From: Gammaproteobacteria bacterium | Lineage (GTDB): Bacteria > Pseudomonadota > Gammaproteobacteria > QNFE01 | DNA length: 64,000 nt | Reading direction: 5' to 3' | Assembly (NCBI GenBank): GCA_003645455.1 | Contig: QNFE01000003.1 | Location: forward strand, 1,442-65,441 | Shown here: positions 8,967 through 64,000 of the stretch, piece after piece | How positions within the stretch are numbered: the first letter of the stretch is position 1 | How the letters are laid out: each line of letters opens with the position of its first letter | The notes under the pieces: model-generated | The model's database searches: none | What the model was told of the DNA's origin: nothing | Seen by the model: only the letters and a program-made list of their open reading frames with translations | Program-made: the position numbers and the translations under genes

Positions 8967-9062
8967 CGGACGAAAATAATTAATAATTAACAGTTATTAG
9001 TTAATAGTGAACGGACAACCAAAATCCTCCACACAACAAAAATCCCACAAAACCAAAAAACC

Positions 9063-9215
9063 CCGTCATTGCGAGGCGGACGGAAAAATGATGTAATATC
9101 AAGCACTTAAACCGCCACGGCAATCTCTTGAGGGGATAACGGACACCCAAAGAGATAACCACGGCAGTTGATTGCACCAGTTCCTCTTTTCTCTCCGTCT
9201 GCCTCGTTATGACGG
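9063..9215. repeat. MITE family 1 copy (TIR CCGTCATTGCGAGG...CCTCGTTATGACGG, about 150 bp)
   Basis: Terminal inverted repeats visible; near-identical copy at 12110..12261; related copies at 32822-32990, 33790-34022, 34545-34728, 61370-61560, 63695-64000. Confidence 0.7.
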
Positions 9216-30186: not shown

Positions 30187-31449
30187 ATGGAAAATACATA
30201 TCTTATTTTAATTTTGGTTGCCACTTTTGGAATTTTTATGGCATGGGGTATAGGGGCGAATGATGTAGCAAACGCTATGGGAACCTCAGTAGGAGCAGGG
30301 GCTTTAACAATCAAACAGGCTATAATAGTCGCAGCTATTTTTGAGTTTTCAGGGGCATATCTGGCAGGGGGGGAGGTTACCAAAACTATCCGCAAAGGAA
30401 TCGTTGATGTTGGTTTATTAAATAGCTCGCCTGATTTGTTGGTGTATGGAATGCTTGCCGCTTTGCTTGCCGCAGGCACTTGGTTATTGATTGCCTCAAA
30501 ACTTGGTTGGCCGGTCTCAACTACCCATTCAATTGTCGGTGCTATTATAGGTTTTGCGGTCGTGGGAATTTCAGTTGATGCCGTGCAATGGAGCAAAGTA
30601 GTTGATATTATGCTAAGTTGGGTAATCACCCCATTGATAGCAGGAATATTATCTTTTTTGATTTTCAGATCTGTCCAAAAACTAATCTTAGATACCAAGC
30701 ACCCATTTAAAAATGCGAAAAAATATGTTCCGATATATATGTTTCTCGCGGGCTTTGTTATATCTCTTGTGACGTTATTTAAAGGCTTAAAACATATTGG
30801 TTTACATACAACACTTTGGCAAAATTATCTAATTGCCACAGGGGTTGGCTTGTTGATTATGTTAGTTGGCACATATTTTATTCGTAAAATCCATATAGAT
30901 AAAGAGGCAGATAGAGAATATCATTTCACAAGCATTGAAAAAATATTTGGAGTTTTAATGGTGATTACAGCATCGGCTATGGCTTTTGCTCACGGCTCAA
31001 ATGATGTAGCTAATGCCGTAGGTCCTGTGGCAGCTGTGGTAAGCATCGTGCAAAATGCAGGAGAAGTAGGACAAAAATCAGTAATGCCGGCATGGGTGCT
31101 GTTGCTCGGTGGCGCAGGAATAGTCATAGGGCTTGCCACTTACGGACACAAAGTTATGGCAACTATTGGCAAAAAAATTACCGAACTTACTCCAAGCCGT
31201 GGTTTTGCCGCCGAGTTATCCGCAGCCTCAACTGTTGTTGTAGCATCAGGTTTTGGTTTGCCAATTTCAACCACTCAAACGCTCGTAGGTGCGGTGTTGG
31301 GGGTAGGTTTTGCTCGTGGGTTGGCAGCTTTGAATCTTGGTGTTGTCCGCTCAATTTTTATGTCATGGGCTATCACACTGCCCGCAGGTGCAATCCTTGC
31401 TATTATTTTCTTTTTCATTTTGAAAAGCATAGGTTTTGCAAGTTTTTAA
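30187..31449 (+). CDS. Inorganic phosphate transporter, PiT family
   Basis: GANDVANA motif twice (N and C halves). Confidence 0.8.
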   Translation: MENTYLILILVATFGIFMAWGIGANDVANAMGTSVGAGALTIKQAIIVAAIFEFSGAYLAGGEVTKTIRKGIVDVGLLNSSPDLLVYGMLAALLAAGTWLLIASKLGWPVSTTHSIVGAIIGFAVVGISVDAVQWSKVVDIMLSWVITPLIAGILSFLIFRSVQKLILDTKHPFKNAKKYVPIYMFLAGFVISLVTLFKGLKHIGLHTTLWQNYLIATGVGLLIMLVGTYFIRKIHIDKEADREYHFTSIEKIFGVLMVITASAMAFAHGSNDVANAVGPVAAVVSIVQNAGEVGQKSVMPAWVLLLGGAGIVIGLATYGHKVMATIGKKITELTPSRGFAAELSAASTVVVASGFGLPISTTQTLVGAVLGVGFARGLAALNLGVVRSIFMSWAITLPAGAILAIIFFFILKSIGFASF

Positions 31450-31508: not shown

Positions 31509-31529
31509 ACAAGGGGACATGTCCCCTTG
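31509..31529. repeat. 22-nt perfect palindrome ACAAGGGGACATGTCCCCTTG(T)-type mini-element copy
   Basis: Same palindrome at 60387-60408, 60619-60640 and 62561-62582; imperfect second palindrome at 31466-31487. Confidence 0.6.
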
Positions 31530-31603
31530 CTAAAATGTATTTATTATTTATTCTTATAATTATTAGAGCTTTATTACCAAATCTTTCTTTTAATAAAAAA
31601 ATT

Positions 31604-32785
31604 ATGTCAAAAAAATTAAAAATAGCCGTTGCTGGCACAGGGTATGTAGGTTTATCAAATGGGATTTTATTAAGTCAATATAACAAAGTTGTAGCCCTTG
31701 ATATCGTTGCTGAAAAAATAACTATGTTAAACCTGGGCATCTGTCCGATCGAAGATGACAGGATGCAAAAAATATTACCACAGCTTATCAACAAATCTTT
31801 TTTTGCCACCCTTGACAAAAAAGAAGCTTATAAAAATGCAGATTTTGTTATTATAGCCACTCCCACAGACTATGACCCCGATACTAATTATTTTAATACC
31901 TCATCGATTGAGTCTGTTATACGGGATGTTTTATCAATCAATCCTGGGACAATAATGGTTATTAAATCCACGGTTCCCGTAGGTTATACCAAATCAATCA
32001 AAGACAAATTTAACACCAAAAATATAATATTCTCGCCAGAGTTTTTGCGAGAAGGGCAAGCATTATATGATAACTTATATCCCAGTAGAATAATAATAGG
32101 AGAGAGATCAAAACGAGCAGAGCAATTTGCAGGTTTATTAACACAAGCGGCAAAAAAAGAAAATATTCAAGTTTTATATACCCACAACACGGAGGCTGAG
32201 GCAATCAAACTTTTTGCCAACACTTATCTGGCGATGAGGGTAGCATATTTTAATGAGTTAGATTCTTATGCTTTAACTCATAACTTAGATAGCAAACAAA
32301 TTATCGAAGGGGTAGGTTTGGATCCAAGAATAGGCATGCACTACAATAACCCAAGCTTTGGTTATGGTGGTTACTGTTTGCCAAAAGACACCAAACAATT
32401 ATTAGCAAACTATAAAGATGTGCCCTCAAATATGATAGAGGCCATAGTCAATGCCAACTCCACTCGTAAAGATTTTATCGCAAATTCCATTACCAAACAA
32501 AATCCAAAAATAGTGGGTGTTTACAGGCTTACCATGAAATCAGATAGTGATAATTTTAGAAGCTCGGCGATTCAAGGCATAATGAAAAGAATCAAATCTC
32601 GAGGCATTGAAGTTATAATCTATGAACCCGCCTTAGAAGACAGTCAATTTTTTAATTCCAAAGTTATTAAAAAACTTGCTGAATTTAAAGAAAAAAGCGA
32701 TATAATAATAACTAATAGATTGGAGGATGATATAAGTGATGTCCGACATAAGGTTTTTACCCGTGATATTTTTAATAAAGATTAA
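31604..32785 (+). CDS. ugd: UDP-glucose 6-dehydrogenase
   Basis: [12 protein letters not shown] Rossmann; [10 protein letters not shown] active-site Cys. Confidence 0.8.
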
Positions 32786-32821: not shown

Positions 32822-32990
32822 ACCCCCGTCATTGCGAGCGTAGCGCGGCAATCTCCTAGGGCAGACGGACACCCAAAGAGACTGCCACGGCATCCTGCCT
32901 CGCAGTGACGGTATATTTTAAGAGACTGCCACACTGCACTTCGTTGCATTGCTGTGACAGAGTTTTTTCGGAGAGATTGTCGTGCAAAAA
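32822..32990. repeat. MITE family 1 copy
   Basis: CCGTCATTGCGAGCG...CGCAGTGACGG termini. Confidence 0.6.
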
Positions 32991-33002
32991 ACACATAAAA
33001 AA

Positions 33003-33027
33003 AGCCGTGTTAGCACGGCTTTTTAAC
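33003..33027. terminator. Bidirectional rho-independent terminator between ugd and the OMP gene
   Basis: AAAAAAGCCGTGTTAGCACGGCTTTTT: 6-bp GC stem flanked by A and T runs. Confidence 0.55.
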
Positions 33028-33049
33028 TTAACTTTTTAACTCAACTTTA

Positions 33050-33706
33050 TTAAAAATACTTAGCTATTCCAATGGTTAAATCAAGACCACCACCATCAAC
33101 TGTTTCGGTATCTGAGCTTGTGTAACTAACTCCATCTGTTGTAAAAGTGTCCTCTTCGTTATATTTTACACTATAGAACTTAGCACCCATATTTAAATGC
33201 AAGCCAGGTTGTAACTTTTTAACATATTCAGCAGTTATATGAAAACCTGTGGCAGTCTCATATTTTTGTTCATATTTTTTAAAACCAACTATGTTAGCAT
33301 TGTCAAATGTCATCTCCAATTTGCCGGCAGAATACATTCCTAAACCACCACCAAATCTTAACAGAGATTTATCATCAATAGTTTTTTTGTATTTTAGAGT
33401 GAACAACATCAAATTACGCGAAAAATCGCCTGTGGCATTAGATACTGGAGTCATGCTACTTTTTTGTGTTCCAAGTGATAATTCAAAATCAAGCATAGGG
33501 TTGATAACATAACCGACATTCAAACCAAAACCCACACCACCACCTGCTGATAGAGTTATATCATCACCTGCTGTGGTTGTGCCGATTTTATCTTCTTTCG
33601 TGCCAAAACCAACTGCAAAATCACCACCTACATAAAATTTTGCATCTTCGGCATACAAACCACCTGCAAAACCTAACAACATCAAACCTACTAATATTCT
33701 TTTCAT
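33050..33706 (-). CDS. Outer-membrane beta-barrel protein (OmpA/OmpW-like porin family)
   Basis: Signal peptide; alternating hydrophobic strands; C-terminal aromatic (AKYF). Confidence 0.55.
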   Translation of the reverse strand: MKRILVGLMLLGFAGGLYAEDAKFYVGGDFAVGFGTKEDKIGTTTAGDDITLSAGGGVGFGLNVGYVINPMLDFELSLGTQKSSMTPVSNATGDFSRNLMLFTLKYKKTIDDKSLLRFGGGLGMYSAGKLEMTFDNANIVGFKKYEQKYETATGFHITAEYVKKLQPGLHLNMGAKFYSVKYNEEDTFTTDGVSYTSSDTETVDGGGLDLTIGIAKYF

Positions 33707-33789
33707 AATAAAAATTCCTTTAAAGATTGATTGCCATAAAAAAGGTTAAAAATAACAACAGTTTGGCAATCAAAAAAAACTGTTGTTGT

Positions 33790-34022
33790 TGTCATAAAAA
33801 ATAATCCCGTCATAACGAGTGACAAAAACCTCGTCATTGCGAGCGAGCTTGCGAGCGTGGCAATCTTTTGGGGTTTGTCCTGTCTTGTTTGCAGGTCTAA
33901 TAGCACCCCAAGAGATTGCTTCGTCGCTACCGCTCCTCGCAATGACGGGACTCTATTAAGAGATAACCACGGCGGATAATTGCTCCGTGTTTCATCCTTT
34001 CTCCGTCTGCCTCGTTATGACG
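33790..34022. repeat. MITE family 1 copies (composite)
   Basis: Multiple GTCATTGCGAG / CTCGCAATGAC / CGTTATGACGG motifs. Confidence 0.55.
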
Positions 34023-34029
34023 GATATTT

Positions 34030-34464
34030 TTATTTTGATTTTATTAATTTGCTTTCAAGTACACCTTTTCTACCAGTTTTTTCATCCACTATATGCAGTT
34101 TTGTTCTGGGAACAAGTATTCCCATTTTTGCTTCTTGCCAGATAAAATATAGTTTTCCTTTTAAGGCTTTGATGGTAACAGAATCTGTATTTTCAGCTAT
34201 TGACTTGACAGTGTGAGTACCTGCTGGAACTTCTTTATAAAAATAGGTATTCATTTTTGTTAAACCTATGAGTTTGTTATCTAACATGGTCTCCATTCTA
34301 TACGCTCCACCAAAAAATTCATTCCTATAAATATAAATTCCTGCCTTTTCAGCTGGTGCTTTAAAATTTTTTGCCGTATGGTCTTCCTCATCAGTTGCCA
34401 TAGGAACAGTGCTACAACCTGCAACAAAATAACCAACAAATAGTAAAAATATAATTTTTTTCAT
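34030..34464 (-). CDS. Lipoprotein, DUF2846-like
   Basis: Start at internal MKKIIFLLFVGYFVAGCS (lipobox); the ORF-track N-terminal extension lies in MITE sequence. Confidence 0.4.
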   Translation of the reverse strand: MKKIIFLLFVGYFVAGCSTVPMATDEEDHTAKNFKAPAEKAGIYIYRNEFFGGAYRMETMLDNKLIGLTKMNTYFYKEVPAGTHTVKSIAENTDSVTIKALKGKLYFIWQEAKMGILVPRTKLHIVDEKTGRKGVLESKLIKSK

Positions 34465-34544
34465 AATATAATTCCTCAAAAATTGATTGCTATAAAAAGT
34501 TAAAAACGACAACAGTTGGCAATCAAAAAAACTGTTATTGTTGT

Positions 34545-34728
34545 CATAAAAAATAATCTCGTCATTACCTAACTTATACAATTGCGAGCAACAGAATCCC
34601 GTCATTGCGAGGAACGAAGAGACAAAGCAATCTCTTTGGGTAAAAAGAGAGACTGCCACGCTCGCAGTGACGAAAACCCCCGTCATTGCGAGGAACGAAG
34701 CAATCTCATAAGGTCAGACGAACACCAA
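34545..34728. repeat. MITE family 1 copies
   Basis: GTCATTGCGAGGAACGAAG motifs. Confidence 0.5.
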
Positions 34729-34960
34729 AGAGACTGCCACACTCGCAAGCTCGTTCGCAGTGACGGATTCTTTTAAGAGACTGCCACACTCGCAAGCTCG
34801 CTCGCAGTGACGGATTCTTTTAAGAGACTGCCACACTCGCAAGCTCGCTCGCAGTGACGGATTCTTTTAAGAGACTGCCACACTCGCAAGCTCGCTCGCA
34901 GTGACAGTATATTTTTTGCTTGCTCGCAGTGACAGTATATTTTTTGCTCGCTCGTTATAA
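34729..34960. repeat. Tandem repeat, 47-nt unit (AGAGACTGCCACACTCGCAAGCTCGCTCGCAGTGACGGATTCTTTTA), about 4.5 copies, derived from MITE family 1 sequence
   Basis: Units begin at 34729, 34776, 34823, 34870; nearly identical. Confidence 0.7.
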
Positions 34961-58485: not shown

Positions 58486-58746
58486 AAAAGAAAAAATTAT
58501 AGGTATTGTAAACCAAAACTAAAACCAATATTCAATTATTAACAAAACCATAAGATTCTAAGTTTGTTATAATGTTATTCATAACTAACAAATAACTTCG
58601 CATAATGTATATTATGTTAAATTACATAAAATAATAGATGGCAGCAATTTGACAGGATACATATGGGAGTGATTTTCTTGTTGGGGACGATTTATGGATG
58701 AGGAATAAAAAATATGGTTTTTTTATGGTTTTTTTGAAGTTTGTTA

Positions 58747-59991
58747 TCAAAGCCATTCTGCAATGACTTTGATATAATCATCTAAATTCTTTATGCTGTC
58801 ATTAGGAGATGATTTTGAGCTGGAATTGCTTGCAGGTAAGTTATGAGCAATATTATTCCTGATATTATTTATTTTTTTAAAAGTCTTGCCTATTTCTATT
58901 TCTTTTGTTGATAATTTTTTGTTGTTCTTATAATCACTCCAAGAAAATAAAATATCCTTAGCTTCTTTTCTGTTATCTTTATTTGTGTCGTCTAATTTTT
59001 CTTTTTTGCACATAATAGATACACTTGCCTCAGCAAGGCACATATACGCCATAGAAAAATTTTTATTTTCATGATACCATTTAGATAAATTAAGTTGAAA
59101 TTCTGGCAGTGATTGATTTTTGAATCTATTAAAAAAATCTTCTAAATCAGAAGCAATCAATGGCAATATTTTGTTGGATGATGTTTTAAAATTATCAATA
59201 GTTTGTGATAAACTGTTTATGCTTTTTTGTAAGGATCTCATATCTGAAATACTAATGGCATCAGATAATTGATTAAATTTTCCTGAAATATTTTTGTCAT
59301 CAATGTTGGTATTAATTAGTTTTTTAAGTTCAAAACTGTTACCATAGTTTTTAAGATTACTAATTGCCTGACCCCAACTTAACAACTCATAAAATATAGA
59401 AACATCTATGATTACAGAAGCCTCATCTTTTTTTAACATAGCATAAAAGATTCCTTTTATCTTAAAACCTGCACGAATTTTGCCAAATTCTGCCACAATT
59501 AAAGACATTATAGAATGAGACCTAAAAAGATGAGTAATGTCTAAATACAACTGATCTTGCTCGCTTAAGTTCTCTATTATTTTTTGAAATTTTTCAAAAA
59601 TACCCCATAATTCCTCTTGATTGTCTCCTGGAAGCACAACAAAACACTCAGATCCAGGTAATTTTTTACTAATTTTATCATTAAGTGGCTGTAAAAAGCA
59701 ATCATCAATATCTGCATTTTCTTTTTTTTCTAAAATTTTATATGCATAGTCACTGTCATCATTATCACTATAAATTTCGTTAATATTGTCCCACATTGAT
59801 TCGCTTGTACCAATTAAAAATAATCTATCAATTTTATACTTTTCAATTATAGGGTTGGTGGCATATTGTTGATTTCTATATAACTTATTGTTATTTTCAA
59901 ATTTGTAAGTAGTTGTAGTATAATTGTTTTTATTGTTATCGTTTTTAGCAGATTTGCCAGTTCCCAGCAAACTTATAAGAATCTTTGCCAT
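58747..59991 (-). CDS. Csx1/Csm6-like CARF-HEPN protein
   Basis: N-terminal CARF signatures (AKILISLLGTGK...; DITHLFRSHS); C-terminal HEPN R-X4-H (NNIRNNIAHNL); adjacent to CRISPR array. Confidence 0.6.
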   Translation of the reverse strand: MAKILISLLGTGKSAKNDNNKNNYTTTTYKFENNNKLYRNQQYATNPIIEKYKIDRLFLIGTSESMWDNINEIYSDNDDSDYAYKILEKKENADIDDCFLQPLNDKISKKLPGSECFVVLPGDNQEELWGIFEKFQKIIENLSEQDQLYLDITHLFRSHSIMSLIVAEFGKIRAGFKIKGIFYAMLKKDEASVIIDVSIFYELLSWGQAISNLKNYGNSFELKKLINTNIDDKNISGKFNQLSDAISISDMRSLQKSINSLSQTIDNFKTSSNKILPLIASDLEDFFNRFKNQSLPEFQLNLSKWYHENKNFSMAYMCLAEASVSIMCKKEKLDDTNKDNRKEAKDILFSWSDYKNNKKLSTKEIEIGKTFKKINNIRNNIAHNLPASNSSSKSSPNDSIKNLDDYIKVIAEWL

Positions 59992-60243
59992 TATTGTCAT
60001 TCCCCCCTATTTTGTAAAAAATTACACAATAACACAAAGTATGTTGATAAACAAAATTATCTTTTAAGGTTTTATGCTGTTATTCAAAGCAGGTAAAATA
60101 TTTGGCAAAGATTGGTCAGATATTAGGCTCAAATGAATCATGTCTTTGTGTTTAATTTTTTCAATCGACAGATATCAAGAACTGTAGCTATTTTTATAAT
60201 TGATAGGCCGTTTTTATACATTGGTTTGGACTATATTATTCTC

Positions 60244-60796
60244 ACCCTTATTCCCTCCCTTCTCTTTGTGCTTTACTAAATGCAGCCTCTTGGATATTTA
60301 ACAGTTAACAGTTATTAGTTGAGTTATCACTATTAATTTTTAACTATTCATTATTAACTATTTCAGTCGGGTCTCGGTCTCTGACAACAAGGGGACATGT
60401 CCCCTTGCCAAATTAGGGTGTCTTAATCCCCTCGGTGTTTTGTAATTGACAGAGGTAGTTAGAAAATTAGTATATTTGTGCCAGTGGTGAATTTTTAAAA
60501 AATAAACATAACTTGTTATGTTGTTTTTTACAAAATTTGACAATGGTGCAAAGATGCTGATTTAATGACTGCCTATGTTGATTACAAGACGCCATATGTC
60601 GGGTCTCGGTCTCTGACAACAAGGGGACATGTCCCCTTGTCAATAAAATAACCAGGTCTTAATCCCCTTTATGTCGAGCTTCTAATAATTGAAAATGGAG
60701 AGTTGATAATTGAGAATTTTGCATAACCTTACCTTGTGTTTTGTTTTATCCCATAATTTTGTTATACACAATTTTTGATTTTTAATTTTCAATTAT
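60244..60796. CRISPR. Degenerate array end: three split CRISPR repeats, each interrupted by a 100-165-nt insertion, with two spacers derived from the palindromic mini-element
   Basis: 5-prime repeat parts at 60246-60262, 60420-60437, 60656-60676; 3-prime repeat parts at 60366-60385, 60595-60617, 60797-60820; spacers 60386-60419 and 60618-60655. Confidence 0.55.
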
Positions 60797-61266
60797 TGTC
60801 GTCGGGTCTCGGTCTCTGACTTTAATAAACTTACGGCACTTATGCAATGTAAAAGCAGTCTTAATCCCCTTTATGTCGGGTCTCGGTCTCTGACCGAAAG
60901 GTTTTGTTCGTTCTGTTTCGTATACGAAAGGTCTTAATCCCCTTTATGTCGGGTCTCGGTCTCTGACCCTGTCAGTTACTGATGGTGGGATTAAAGATGC
61001 GTCTTAATCCCCTTTATGTCGGGTCTCGGTCTCTGACCAGAAGAAGTAATCGCCTGAAGAGGTAGTAAAATACAGTCTTAATCCCCTTTATGTCGGGTCT
61101 CGGTCTCTGACACAGAAATAATTGGTCGTGGCGAATGGCATAGTGCTTTGTCTTAATCCCCTTTATGTCGGGTCTCGGTCTCTGACTCTACCTCCTGTTT
61201 TTCACTTTTAAAAACAATTACTTACAGACCCCCGTTAACGGAAATCTGTCGTAGCGAAAATCTGAC
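60797..61266. CRISPR. CRISPR array: 37-nt repeat GTCTTAATCCCCTTTATGTCGGGTCTCGGTCTCTGAC, 5 full repeats (60858, 60931, 61001, 61075, 61150), one partial leading repeat, possible degenerate terminal repeat 61227-61266; spacers 33-40 nt
   Basis: Direct inspection: identical 37-mers regularly spaced with unique 33-38-nt spacers. Confidence 0.85.
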
Positions 61267-61369
61267 TATTTTTTTGAGTCAAAAACTGGTGTTTATTATA
61301 CAATTTTATGGTTTTAAAAGTCAAGGTTTTTTTTGATTTTGGGTGGCTTTGAGAGATTAGATTTCCTCC

Positions 61370-61560
61370 CTGCGGTCGCGATGCTTTGTTTCTTCGTTTC
61401 TGGCAATGACAGTTCATCCGTCACTGCGAGCGAGCTTGGCGAAACGTGGCAGTCTCTCTTTTTACCCCAAGAGATTGCTTCGTTCCTCGTAATGACGGCA
61501 ACGAATTACCTAACTTATACAGCAATGACGGCTCCCTAAAAGAGATTGCCATATTCACAC
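61370..61560. repeat. MITE family 1 copies between array and cas operon
   Basis: GTCACTGCGAGCGAGC..., CTCGTAATGACGG, CAATGACGG motifs. Confidence 0.5.
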
Positions 61561-61588
61561 ACTCACTTGCAATGATGAGGTTTAATAA

Positions 61589-61861
61589 TTAAAAAGGACA
61601 GTCATCATCATAAGCAGTATAACCGTTATTGTTATTATAAGAGTTGTGTTTTTGATAGACTTTGCAGAATATTTCCATATTTGTGACTATTTCTTGGAAT
61701 ACTGTCCGATCTTCATAGGCGATATGAAATGGAGCATCGTTTATCATCTGGTCGGTTTTTTTGGCAATTATTGCAGGATCGATAAAATAATCAGGCAACA
61801 GACGAGCTGCATTAATTTCTTGGGTTATTAAATCACATCTTAAATCGTGCTTGGTTTTCAT
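61589..61861 (-). CDS. Hypothetical 90-aa protein, last gene of cas operon (ATGA overlap with cas2)
   Basis: No motif recognised; two Cys near C-terminus; not convincingly Cas4. Confidence 0.3.
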   Translation of the reverse strand: MKTKHDLRCDLITQEINAARLLPDYFIDPAIIAKKTDQMINDAPFHIAYEDRTVFQEIVTNMEIFCKVYQKHNSYNNNNGYTAYDDDCPF

Positions 61862-62160
61862 TTATTTCTCCTTATTTTAGTAAAATTTTTTGGTAAAAGA
61901 TAATCTAATGGCGTATCTTTGCCATAGATTGAAATTTTGGTTTTTTTATCAAAACGATATATTTTTATATCATCTTGTTTTGGATCAATTATTTTATTAA
62001 TATCTGTTTGATATTCTAAGATTTGTCTGTTCGTTGTGTCTGCCATATATACCGAATATTGAATAGGCAAGGTTATGGCACACAGGTATTGGTGAACTTT
62101 TCTCAATCGTTTTTTGCATTTTATATCGTAACAAATTAAATATAAATTTGTATGTGCCAT
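61858..62160 (-). CDS. cas2: Cas2 (copy b)
   Basis: LYLICYDIKCKKRLRKVHQYL...IQYSVYMA...DDIKIYRF Cas2 signature. Confidence 0.7.
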   Translation of the reverse strand: MAHTNLYLICYDIKCKKRLRKVHQYLCAITLPIQYSVYMADTTNRQILEYQTDINKIIDPKQDDIKIYRFDKKTKISIYGKDTPLDYLLPKNFTKIRRNK

Positions 62161-62163
62161 TTT

Positions 62164-63255
62164 TTAAAATAACTCCGCTTGAATGGGGGTTGTTATATTT
62201 AACACTACATCGTCATCGTTGTCATTGATGAGGCTGTTTTTGAGTTGATAACTTTGTAATCTTAACCATCTTCTGTATGGTGGTAGCCATTTTTCTAATT
62301 GATGATAATAGATTTTACGCCCTGTTTTTGATAACAAGCATTTTTTAGCATTTTTAATAAAATGTTCTTGGCGAATATCTTGCTCGGCAAACAAACGCCA
62401 GATAAAATATTCCGCCGAGGGGCGAATTGGCTCTATTATATCAGAGGCAAGAGCAGCATGATTGTAGGATGGTTTATGTAGAAAACCTATGTATGGATCC
62501 AGACCTGCTTGATATTAACTCGGCAGTTAAATACATGTATTCAACTTCCCATAAGAACTAACAAGGGGACATGTCCCCTTGTCAAAATAGAGAAGTTTAT
62601 TGTTGCCAGTTTAATAAATAGCTTTGACAGCTTGGCTGTATAAAATTGTATAAGTCAAAGACAACACCGAATTAACAGGATCTGGGGCAGGATGTTTGGC
62701 TCGTTTGGTAAAATTCAAAGATGGAGCAAATAATTGAGTATAGGCTTGAAAGAAAAATTTGGAGGCACAGCCTTCTATACCGAGTAACTGGTTGGTATTG
62801 ATGGGTTCTGTCAGAGATTTATTTGTCAATAAAAATTTTAATTTATCATAGGTTTGCTGTAAAATTTTATCTTTATCGGTGCGAGTGCTGGTGATTTTTT
62901 TAATCAATTTTAGCTGTTTGGTGATTTTGTTGGTAATTTGATGGGTTGCCAGATTAAGCGGAATATCTTTTTTTTCTAACCATCTATATTGTGAGATTCT
63001 GCCTTTGGCATCTTTGTGAGGCGAGCCAAAGATTATGACAGGTTCCACTGATCTTTTGTTGATAAAAACAATGCTGACATTATGCTTTTGGCAAGCATAT
63101 AATAACTTGGCGTTGAGATTGCAGTGACCGTAGATTATTATTCTCTCGATGAGCTGCAAAGGTAAGGCTTGATAAGTTTTATCGGCTTTGAGTTTGATCC
63201 TTTTGCCATCGGTATCAAGGTTGATGTGTTGTTTGTCAATATAGATTGTTTTCAT
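62164..63255 (-). pseudogene. cas1: cas1 interrupted in frame by a 96-nt palindromic mini-element insertion (62518..62613) carrying stop codons
   Basis: N-terminal part ends ...LSLTYTILYSQAVKAIY*; C-terminal part resumes QAGLDPYIGFLHKPSYNHAALASDIIEPIRP...; same frame on both sides; catalytic E/H/D present. Confidence 0.7.
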
Positions 63256-63263
63256 TTTAGTTG

Positions 63264-63557
63264 TTATCCGATATATATCATATTGTTTTCAGCAGGCTTC
63301 AAAGCAATGCCACAGGTTATCAGAGGATTATTTTTAGGTAATTTTATGATTAGAAAACGATCTGTTTTTTTGTTTAGTTGGGGGATGATCTGGTTTTTTA
63401 TATTCTGGCAATTTGCCGGGGTCAGATAACACTCATAGACCGATTTTTGCCATTGATAAGAATAGGATTGCAAAATCTTGCATATACGAGATCGGGTGTT
63501 ATGACAACTTATGTCATAGGATAATAAATAAAAATGATTATTTGGTTTTAAGCTCAT
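63264..63557 (-). CDS. cas2: Cas2 (copy a), upstream of cas1
   Basis: HFYLLSYDISCHNTRSRICKILQSYSYQWQKSVYECYL...DRFLIIKL Cas2 signature. Confidence 0.65.
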   Translation of the reverse strand: MSLKPNNHFYLLSYDISCHNTRSRICKILQSYSYQWQKSVYECYLTPANCQNIKNQIIPQLNKKTDRFLIIKLPKNNPLITCGIALKPAENNMIYIG

Positions 63558-63694
63558 AACAACAATGGTGGAATTAAAAAAAACCACTATTGTATATTAT
63601 TTTTTTAAATATGTGTTTTATGACAAGCTTGTCATTTTTTTTGGCGAGTAAAAATAATGCCAGTCCATTTTTTAAGTGGTCAGGGTGGTTATCT

Positions 63695-64000
63695 CTTTTT
63701 GAAGTCGTCATTGCGAGGAATTCGCCGCAGAGCGGATACCGTGGCAATCTCTTGAGGGTTTAGTGTGTAACCTCAGGAGATTGCCACGGCTACGCCTCGC
63801 AATGACGGGGTTATGTTTTGGTGCTGTTGCGGTGTTTTATATTAACTTATTTCTTGTCTGCGAATTACCTAACTTATACAGCAATGACGGGGTTTTTTGT
63901 GGCAGTCTTTTGGTTTAGCCAAGAGATTGCTTCGCTACGCTCGCAATGACGGCTCCCTAAAAGAGGTTGCTTCGTTCCTCGCAATGACGGGGTTTTTTGT
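63695..64000. repeat. MITE family 1 copies (window edge)
   Basis: GTCATTGCGAGGAATTCGCC...CGCAATGACGG repeated. Confidence 0.55.

Follow-up and report, generated by a model that had tools for sequence, protein, structure and literature searches.

Identity of the locus

At the right-hand end of a 64,000-nucleotide (nt) stretch of the gammaproteobacterial contig QNFE01000003.1 (positions 1,442 to 65,441 of the forward strand; this whole 64-kb stretch is called the window here) lies a CRISPR-Cas locus that comprises a CARF-HEPN nuclease gene, an array and a cas2-cas1-cas2 operon, with no effector gene in sight. The question raised by this locus is whether it represents an effector-less system of no standard subtype, as a sequence-only reading of the window had proposed, or part of a conventional one. 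We are highly confident that the region is the promoter-distal third of one type III-A (Csm) CRISPR-Cas locus of ~15.8 kb, encoded on the minus strand. The host of the locus is the chromosome of an AT-rich Gammaproteobacteria metagenome-assembled genome (MAG).

An effector module just beyond position 64000 was looked for by contig extension and profile searches, and it was found. An exact-protein look-up of Cas2a retrieved ENA contig k141_1148694 (ERZ27227324; 15.1 kb), which overlaps window positions 60403-64000 over 3598 bp with 0 mismatches and runs 11.5 kb beyond the window end. A complete Csm module follows directly past position 64000 on the same strand, and the nearest locus gene ends at window-equivalent position 64071, i.e., 71 bases past the edge. 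The effector genes look missing because the window stops inside a repeat block, so that only cas2a and the genes downstream of it are seen. The entire ENA contig and an independent Logan contig agree in their gene order. From one end of the locus to the other, the order is CARF-HEPN (TIGR02710-like), cas10/csm1, csm2, csm3, csm4, csm5, AAA/PD-(D/E)xK, CARF-PD-(D/E)xK, repeat block, cas2a, cas1 (broken), cas2b, orf90, leader, array, and csx1. The genes past the edge are listed below in window-equivalent positions, where position x of contig L001 is window 73588 - x and position x of contig L002 is window 75510 - x; protein lengths are in amino acids (aa).

73165-74511, minus strand: CARF-HEPN gene, 448 aa (CARF_HEPN 4e-97)
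70876-73158, minus strand: cas10/csm1, 760 aa (TIGR02578 6.6e-155, 517.7 bits against a cut-off of 170, residues 17-759)
70483-70872, minus strand: csm2 (TIGR01870 58.8 bits against a cut-off of 30.6; PADLOC Csm2 1.8e-18)
69759-70466, minus strand: csm3 (TIGR02582 222.5 bits against a cut-off of 90)
68838-69752, minus strand: csm4 (TIGR01903 126 bits against a cut-off of 55)
67202-68851 (L001 4737-6386), minus strand: csm5, 549 aa (PADLOC Csm5 1.6e-24)
65609-67165 (L001 6423-7979), minus strand: AAA/PDDEXK_9 gene, 518 aa (PF09820 3.9e-61; PF08011 5.2e-21)
64071-65624, minus strand: CARF-PDDEXK gene, 517 aa (PADLOC CARF_PDDEXK 2.5e-14)

Cas10, Csm2, Csm3, and Csm4 all score above the curated NCBIfam cut-offs for type III-A. 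The type III-A assignment is also already present in the GenBank annotation: NCBI names the Cas10 of the locus "type III-A Cas10/Csm1" in a Gammaproteobacteria MAG with DRQ51_ locus tags and protein accessions RLA06131.1 and RLA08810-RLA08825, and the RadA, Csx1, and orf90 of the window are on the NCBI-annotated contig as well. The sequence-only reading was right that no Cas9, Cas12, Cas10, or Cascade gene is among the families listed for the open reading frames (ORFs) of the window. Its other 46 ORFs of at least 150 aa include housekeeping genes, such as those for RadA, Mfd, the gyrase/topoisomerase IV A subunit, IspD, and IspF, and a restriction-modification methylase, with no cas family among the top 25 matched families listed. 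That the locus is effector-less or a novel subtype, with no parts besides a CARF-HEPN nuclease, an array, and cas2-cas1-cas2, has next to no chance of being correct: the lack of any Cas10, Cas7, Cas9, or Cas12 family inside the 64 kb speaks for it, but the complete Csm module stands just past the edge on window-identical sequence, and NCBI calls it type III-A.

Effector module and CARF effectors

The locus is an ordinary type III-A system of the cyclase-only kind with several CARF effectors, a kind that has already been catalogued. An HD domain is absent from its Cas10; in the alignment, relatives of ~890 aa have an FLHDLGK motif and ~130 more N-terminal residues. The cyclase motif GGDD is retained, and FAGGDDFFLIGPW is conserved in the alignment with relatives. 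The HD domain has been found in 39% of type III loci and 65% of III-A loci, and type III loci often have an HD-less, cyclase-only Cas10 and more than one effector (PMC11229360); a functional HD-less Cas10 is known from another case (PMC8682760). As only 65% of III-A loci have the HD domain, its absence here does not exclude III-A membership.

Three CARF proteins are encoded in the locus: the CARF-PD-(D/E)xK protein, the 448-aa CARF-HEPN protein, and Csx1, whose gene is the last of the locus and lies downstream of the array.

58747-60000, minus strand: csx1, 417 aa, a CARF-HEPN ancillary RNase by family

The presence of a CARF-HEPN gene to the left of the array, as read from the sequence initially, is borne out by the profiles: Csx1 matches TIGR02221 at 1.6e-36 (126.4 bits against a cut-off of 76.25, profile positions 1-217 of 218) and PADLOC CARF2-CARF_HEPN at 2.3e-106 across residues 4-415. 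Its translation shows the HEPN motif RNNIAH (Rx4H), and NCBI lists it as RLA08813.1, a "TIGR02221 family CRISPR-associated protein." A look-up of a 414-aa Csx1 variant led to another ENA contig of the same organism and to no sister strain. Both HEPN motifs are present, and so is a D...ECK nuclease motif. Since Cas10 is without an HD domain but keeps GGDD, and since three CARF effectors accompany it, defense should run via cyclic oligoadenylate signaling.

On this basis, the system could work as follows. The array would be transcribed on the minus strand from a promoter in the leader, and Cas6, made elsewhere in the genome, would cut the transcript into CRISPR RNAs (crRNAs) carrying a AUUAAGAC tag. 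The Csm complex would then bind complementary phage RNA, upon which Cas10 would make cyclic oligoadenylate and thereby activate the two CARF-HEPN RNases, including the Csx1 of the window, and the CARF-PD-(D/E)xK nuclease. As far as can be judged from the genes themselves, the interference module looks intact.

Some features of the module and its surroundings are worth recording. The C-terminal ~150 aa of Csm5 are rich in Lys, Gln, and Glu and are not covered by Csm5 profiles, and the counterparts in two related loci (L006 and L007) are similarly long (571-588 aa). A predicted AAA-ATPase/PDDEXK_9 gene sits between csm5 and the CARF-PD-(D/E)xK gene. A 223-aa gene upstream of the locus (L002 317-988) was considered as a candidate cas6 and rejected, as it has no PADLOC or Pfam match. 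The contig end upstream of the locus (L002 1-180) holds tandem 13- to 14-nt repeats (GAGGGTAAAATA..., then GAGGGCAAGAAA...) within a partial ORF, and it is probably because of these that the assembly stops there.

Array, leader, and second array with cas6

The array and the sequence between it and the cas genes are made up as follows, from the oldest repeat to the gene next to cas2b.

60366-60385, minus strand: repeat 8 (oldest), of which only the first 20 nt (crRNA sense) are left
60386-60419, minus strand: spacer 7, 34 nt, containing the palindrome ACAAGGGGACATGTCCCCTTGT
60420-60617, minus strand: repeat 7, split by a 163-bp insert at 60433-60595, with flanks corresponding to repeat nt 25-37 and nt 1-22
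60618-60655, minus strand: spacer 6, 38 nt, containing the same palindrome
60656-60820, minus strand: repeat 6, split by a 124-bp insert at 60677-60800
60821-61186, minus strand: spacer 5, then five intact, identical 37-nt repeats (60858-61186) with spacers 4 to 1
61187-61333, minus strand: leader, with a promoter-like TTGACT-18-TATAAT at 61324-61295 (11/12 consensus positions)
61334-61588, unstranded: repeat block of short dispersed modules (...GAGATTGC...CGTAATGACGG...)
61589-61861, minus strand: orf90, overlapping the stop codon of cas2b

The five identical 37-nt repeats recognized in the sequence-only reading are real, with spacers of 33-38 nt between them, but the array is longer than was seen then: it has 8 repeats and 7 spacers and extends left to 60366, with each of the three oldest repeats split or truncated by an insertion. 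A 20-mer half-repeat occurs 8 times, compared to 0 times in shuffles. The repeat reads GTCAGAGACCGAGACCCGACATAAAGGGGATTAAGAC in the crRNA sense, with the minus-strand end ...AAAGGGGATTAAGAC (ATTAAGAC). It is weakly structured (-6.1 kcal/mol, z = -1.5), in agreement with the initial description of it as nonpalindromic, and an Rfam search of 58500-64000 gave only a subthreshold CRISPR-DR8 match (24.7 bits, below the gathering score). The repeat end and the promoter-like site in the leader together point to minus-strand transcription of the array and to AUUAAGAC as the predicted 8-nt tag of the crRNAs. The repeat 20-mer had no match in the GTDB set of one genome per species, in which this MAG is not a species representative. 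For orf90, no Pfam, NCBIfam, or PADLOC family was found, and among 1.84 billion cluster representatives, only orf90 itself and one weak partial match were retrieved; since it has no relatives, it may not be a real gene.

No cas6 was found in the locus itself by profile searches of the window ORFs and the extension. Searching metagenome contigs with the half-repeat gave a single JGI contig, L015, from a different sample, in which an array with the identical repeat adjoins a cas6 gene and a leader that is 80.7% identical to that of the window array, with the promoter-like site kept in both. The L015 Cas6 has 313 aa and matches PF10040 at 1.7e-13 (51.6 bits against a cut-off of 25). Its exact sequence is NCBI RLA06131.1, locus tag DRQ51_10295, and because this prefix is the same as that of the window genes, the genome has two arrays, one by the cas operon and one by cas6.

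The inserts inside the repeats recur between the two arrays. The 163-bp insert is found at the same repeat position in both (window 60420-60617 and L015 7947-8144, 98.5% identical over 198 bp), with unrelated flanking spacers. Repeats are also interrupted by a second family of inserts, namely at window 60677-60800, near 60366, and from L015 8281 onwards, with the L015 repeat cut at a different position. In repeat 6, the inverted ends of the insert are near (T/C)AATAATTGAAAAT, and 4 repeat bases (CGAC) are duplicated at the junctions as read from the sequence; what follows the repeat 8 remnant is 80% similar to the start of this insert. There is no other copy of the 163-bp or 124-bp insert in 75.5 kb of host sequence and none in the phage contigs described below, and the insert cores had no match in IMG/VR. 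Possibly, these inserts go specifically into CRISPR repeats, and small inserts of this kind, with the same one at the same repeat position in two arrays, are worth a further look. The units of half-repeat, palindrome, and half-repeat at 60366-60432 and 60598-60676 were also considered as CreA-like or mini-array regulators; this was rejected, since they are normal-length spacers between insert-cut repeats.

Adaptation genes

The adaptation genes, and the repeat block that lies between them and the effector genes, are as follows.

63588-64000, unstranded: repeat block, continuing to about 64070, the end of the CARF-PD-(D/E)xK gene
63264-63587, minus strand: cas2a, the upstream Cas2 (PF09827 6.1e-15)
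62164-63255, minus strand: cas1 pseudogene, with its N-terminal part at 62614-63255 and its C-terminal part at 62164-62511 in the same frame (PF01867 4.7e-40)
62512-62613, unstranded: cas1 insert, 102 bp, with three stop codons, a palindromic core, TAT on both sides, and imperfect inverted ends
61858-62160, minus strand: cas2b, the downstream Cas2 (PF09827 6.4e-16)

The operon had been read as cas2-cas1-cas2-orf90. The families of both Cas2 proteins and of Cas1 are matched, and the orf90 ORF exists, but cas1 is a pseudogene and not one gene. Its N-terminal ORF (62611-63255) encodes 214 aa, the length at which all public copies of this Cas1 end. The frame runs through ...AVKAIY into 34 codons with three stops and then continues as QAGLDPYIGFLH... 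in the same frame. Rebuilt without the insert, Cas1 has 329 aa, aligns without gaps over 91-97% of intact Cas1 proteins (312-331 aa), and retains the invariant residues E161, H226, D238, and E241. It is because of this gapless alignment and the kept catalytic residues that we consider the lesion to be single and probably recent. The Cas1-like gene cas1', which accompanies cas1 in related loci as described below, is absent: between the end of cas1 at 62164 and the start of cas2b at 62160, there is no space for such a gene. With Cas1 truncated before the catalytic His and Asp/Glu and the cas1' of the clade missing, spacer uptake is likely lost, and the locus would be unable to take up new spacers. 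We infer that the locus as a whole combines a working-looking interference system with a frozen memory.

Dispersed repeats and a Mu-like phage

The repeat blocks at the two ends of the cas operon had been described as blocks of miniature inverted-repeat transposable elements. Repeat blocks do exist there, but they are clusters of modules of ~30-45 nt and are not shown to be single elements; the modules are common to both blocks and to window positions 9052-9078 and 32824-34905.

The insert in cas1 has its closest likeness in phage sequence. Over 86 bp, it shares 94% identity with an intergenic segment of two IMG/VR contigs (L098 10037-10122 and L100 1979-2064) with different flanks, and the similarity sets in precisely at the TAT|TAAACTG junction. 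The inverted ends of the insert do not match each other perfectly (TAAACTGGCA versus TTAACTCGGCA), and the flanking TAT may be a duplication or chance. The insert has no coding capacity and folds only into a short palindromic hairpin, and no full-length second copy was found in 75.5 kb of host sequence. The phage contigs encode MuA- and MuB-like transposition proteins, a terminase, a portal, a head protease, a baseplate, and a tail fiber, and from these proteins we take them to be Mu-like phages. Judged by this resemblance, a small phage-associated element appears to have knocked out the spacer acquisition gene cas1 of the host.

The 22-nt palindrome ACAAGGGGACATGTCCCCTTGT connects the array to the same phages. 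It has 4 copies in the 64-kb window, in spacer 6, in spacer 7, in the core of the cas1 insert, and at 31512, and it occurs about once per kb in two of the IMG/VR contigs, whereas it is rare in the host. Spacer 7 matches phage contig L099 at 31/34 positions, and spacer 6 matches it at 34/38. Spacers 1 to 5 and four L015 spacers gave nothing beyond 15 nt against the three Mu-like phage loci. The array may once have gained spacers against the multicopy palindrome of the phage, and the small element may later have landed in cas1, although the order of these events and a causal link between them are conjectural. The simplest reading would be that a transposable phage lives in the lineage and shares small mobile repeats with it.

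Several further observations concern these repeats and their genomic surroundings. Spacers 6 and 7, the two oldest, end at exactly the same base of the palindrome. The palindrome copy at 31511-31528 lies in an 85-bp gap between the plus-strand genes 30187-31449 and 31535-32785, is preceded by a weaker hairpin, and may act as a terminator. Short modular repeats of the form ...GAGATTGC(N)CGCAATGACGG... are abundant in the genome (window and L015) and are also present in the Mu-like phage contigs, and at 34595-34905, several tandem-like copies of a module lie between two 218-aa ORFs (33050-33706 and 34030-34686). The window also encodes three Sel1-repeat proteins and an Eco57I-type (type II/IIG) methylase, and L015 encodes a Sel1-like Cys-rich repeat protein; these proteins together with a G+C content of 32% suggest a host-associated gammaproteobacterium.

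Alternative explanations

Some points weigh against a type III-A locus with working interference. Csm5 has no significant NCBIfam match, with only a subthreshold hit to Cmr6 (TIGR01898; E value of 0.0049, 17 bits against a cut-off of 51.1), and has an unusual C-terminal extension of ~150 aa. The cas6 gene is tied to the locus only through MAG binning and the identical repeat, and none of the three young spacers (spacers 1 to 3) has an exact match in IMG/VR. Finally, MAGs are metagenome assemblies in which repeat-rich junctions could be misassembled, yet three assemblies agree here. The corresponding explanation, in which repeats in the metagenome bin misled the assembly and the insertions in cas1 and the CRISPR repeats are artifacts, is extremely unlikely. 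The genome is indeed rich in short repeats, and the ENA assembly breaks exactly at a palindrome (window 60403), but the window and k141_1148694 have identical cas1 junctions, the 214-aa product is recorded from several sources, and a JGI contig from a different sample contains the split repeat 7 again, with 98.5% identity.

If the lesion in cas1 is real, the gene could still work if the cell bypassed the insert or removed it from the RNA or the protein, or if the two halves formed a split Cas1, which would keep adaptation alive. An insert of exactly 34 codons, in frame, with no other lesion in the flanking Cas1 and all catalytic residues kept, is what such an explanation would have in its favor. 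We nevertheless consider it very improbable. The insert carries three in-frame stop codons and represents one copy of a dispersed element that phage genomes contain as well. No sign of an intron, an intein, or recoding was detected: Rfam has no match in the insert, and the fold is just a short palindromic hairpin. The break interrupts the catalytic alpha-helical domain, and the C-terminal part lacks a start codon and a ribosome-binding context before a TTG at 62394. The opposite possibility is that the whole system, interference included, is a dead relic that is being lost. The broken cas1 and absent cas1', the three cut repeats out of eight, and an array of 7 spacers only would fit this, as would the HD-less Cas10, the location of cas6 outside the locus, and the spacers, of which 1 to 3 lack an exact protospacer in the virus collection while 4 and 5 have no counterpart in the three phage loci. 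On the other hand, the eight upstream genes and csx1 are full length with profile matches from end to end, the GGDD, both HEPN, and D...ECK nuclease motifs are present, the five leader-proximal repeats are identical, both leaders have a strong promoter-like site, cas6 is intact elsewhere in the MAG, and HD-less cyclase-only Cas10 proteins are common and functional (PMC8682760, PMC11229360). A dead relic is thus unlikely. The decay suspected in the sequence-only reading holds for cas1, cas1', and three of the eight repeats, but not for the interference genes and csx1, and an otherwise conventional type III-A locus that has lost adaptation remains the reading that we prefer.

Double cas2 in related adaptation modules

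The two cas2 genes had been regarded as an oddity of this locus, but cas2 at both ends is what this Cas1 clade normally has. When one genome per species was scanned with the Cas1 alignment, at least 329 relatives were obtained, of which the best 80 were examined with hidden Markov models. Among these, 67 have the order cas2a-cas1-cas1'-cas2b, while cas2a-cas1-cas2b, as here, is found in 7 (Aggregatibacter segnis, Pasteurella, Testudinibacter, two Zoogloea, Sulfuricella, and an Alcanivoracaceae MAG) and the remaining 6 are incomplete because the contig ends there. Gene neighborhoods were also read for six of the closest relatives with an intact Cas1, which come from both III-A and III-B loci, and each has cas2, cas1, a Cas1-like gene (248-275 aa), and cas2. 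The Cas2a and Cas2b of our locus share 23% identity; Cas2a has its best matches in the upstream Cas2 proteins of relatives (1.6e-18) and Cas2b in the downstream ones (1e-14), and these matches are reciprocal. Double cas2 is ancestral in this Cas1 clade.

The gene missing from our locus, cas1', encodes ~250 aa and lies between cas1 and the second cas2 in the relatives (L004-L014 and L018-L097; e.g., L030 4945-5700, Methylotuvimicrobium sp. KM1). Cas1' resembles Cas1 only across its first ~100 residues (hhalign 97.3%, 1.7e-11), and its alignment contains no conserved acidic or His (catalytic) residues. In the open-access literature, we found no description of a second Cas1-like gene in type III adaptation modules. 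In a neighbor-joining tree, the Cas1 of the window is on a long branch, and its distance is 0.64-0.68 to the four-gene forms compared to 0.72-0.75 to the three-gene forms. Its being nearer to the four-gene forms weakly suggests that the loss of cas1' here was probably independent. We tentatively suggest, as a possibility that may well prove wrong, that the relatives build an asymmetric integrase in which pairs of a catalytic Cas1 and a structural Cas1' are bridged by a Cas2a/Cas2b heterodimer, and that our locus is a derivative that lost Cas1' and, more recently, Cas1.

Comparison with known systems

Type III-A systems are known from Staphylococcus epidermidis, Streptococcus thermophilus, Mycobacterium tuberculosis, and Thermus thermophilus. 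Our locus shares with the type the order cas10/csm1-csm2-csm3-csm4-csm5, the position of cas1 and cas2 adjoining the array, a CARF-HEPN RNase of the Csm6/Csx1 kind, and a weakly structured repeat of ~36-37 nt, here ending in ...GGGGATTAAGAC, compared to ...GGGGATTGCGAC in T. thermophilus. It differs in that Cas10 is without an HD domain, three CARF effectors are present rather than one, cas6 is at a second array elsewhere, cas2 is present as two paralogues, and cas1 is inactivated. An HD-less Cas10 is shared with the III-B system VmeCmr of Vibrio metoecus (PMC8682760) and with cyclase-only systems (PMC11229360), and because the HD domain is lacking, immunity must run through effectors activated by a second messenger. 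Unlike our III-A locus with its CARF effectors, VmeCmr is a III-B system with a NucC effector and cA3 as the messenger.

The adaptation genes are closest to the cas2a-cas1-cas1'-cas2b module of III-A and III-B loci in Gamma- and Betaproteobacteria such as Methylotuvimicrobium sp. KM1, Plasticicumulans acidivorans, and Thauera phenylacetica. These bacteria have orthologues of cas2a, cas1, and cas2b in an unchanged order, and their module is likewise found at the end of an effector operon of type III, beside the array. In contrast to that module, our locus lacks the ~250-aa Cas1-like gene, as does Aggregatibacter segnis ATCC 33393, and its cas1 is also broken. Vibrio vulnificus YJ016 also has two distinct Cas2 proteins in a single type III adaptation operon: both Cas2 proteins of its III-D operon RT-Cas1-Cas2A-Cas2B are needed for spacer acquisition, and a Cas2A/Cas2B heterodimer has been proposed (PMC6821258). 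Relatives of the window module also carry a gene of the VVA1548 (csx16) family. There is no reverse transcriptase in our locus, and the order is cas2-cas1-cas2 and not RT-cas1-cas2A-cas2B.

In conclusion, a locus clipped by the window edge mimicked a new effector-less CRISPR type, and a single contig extension settled its identity. What the extension uncovered is a clean natural example of a type III-A system in which interference is kept, to judge from its genes, and adaptation is probably lost. The four-gene module of its relatives could be the reason that two Cas2 proteins are needed in some type III systems, a need that was demonstrated experimentally in V. vulnificus.

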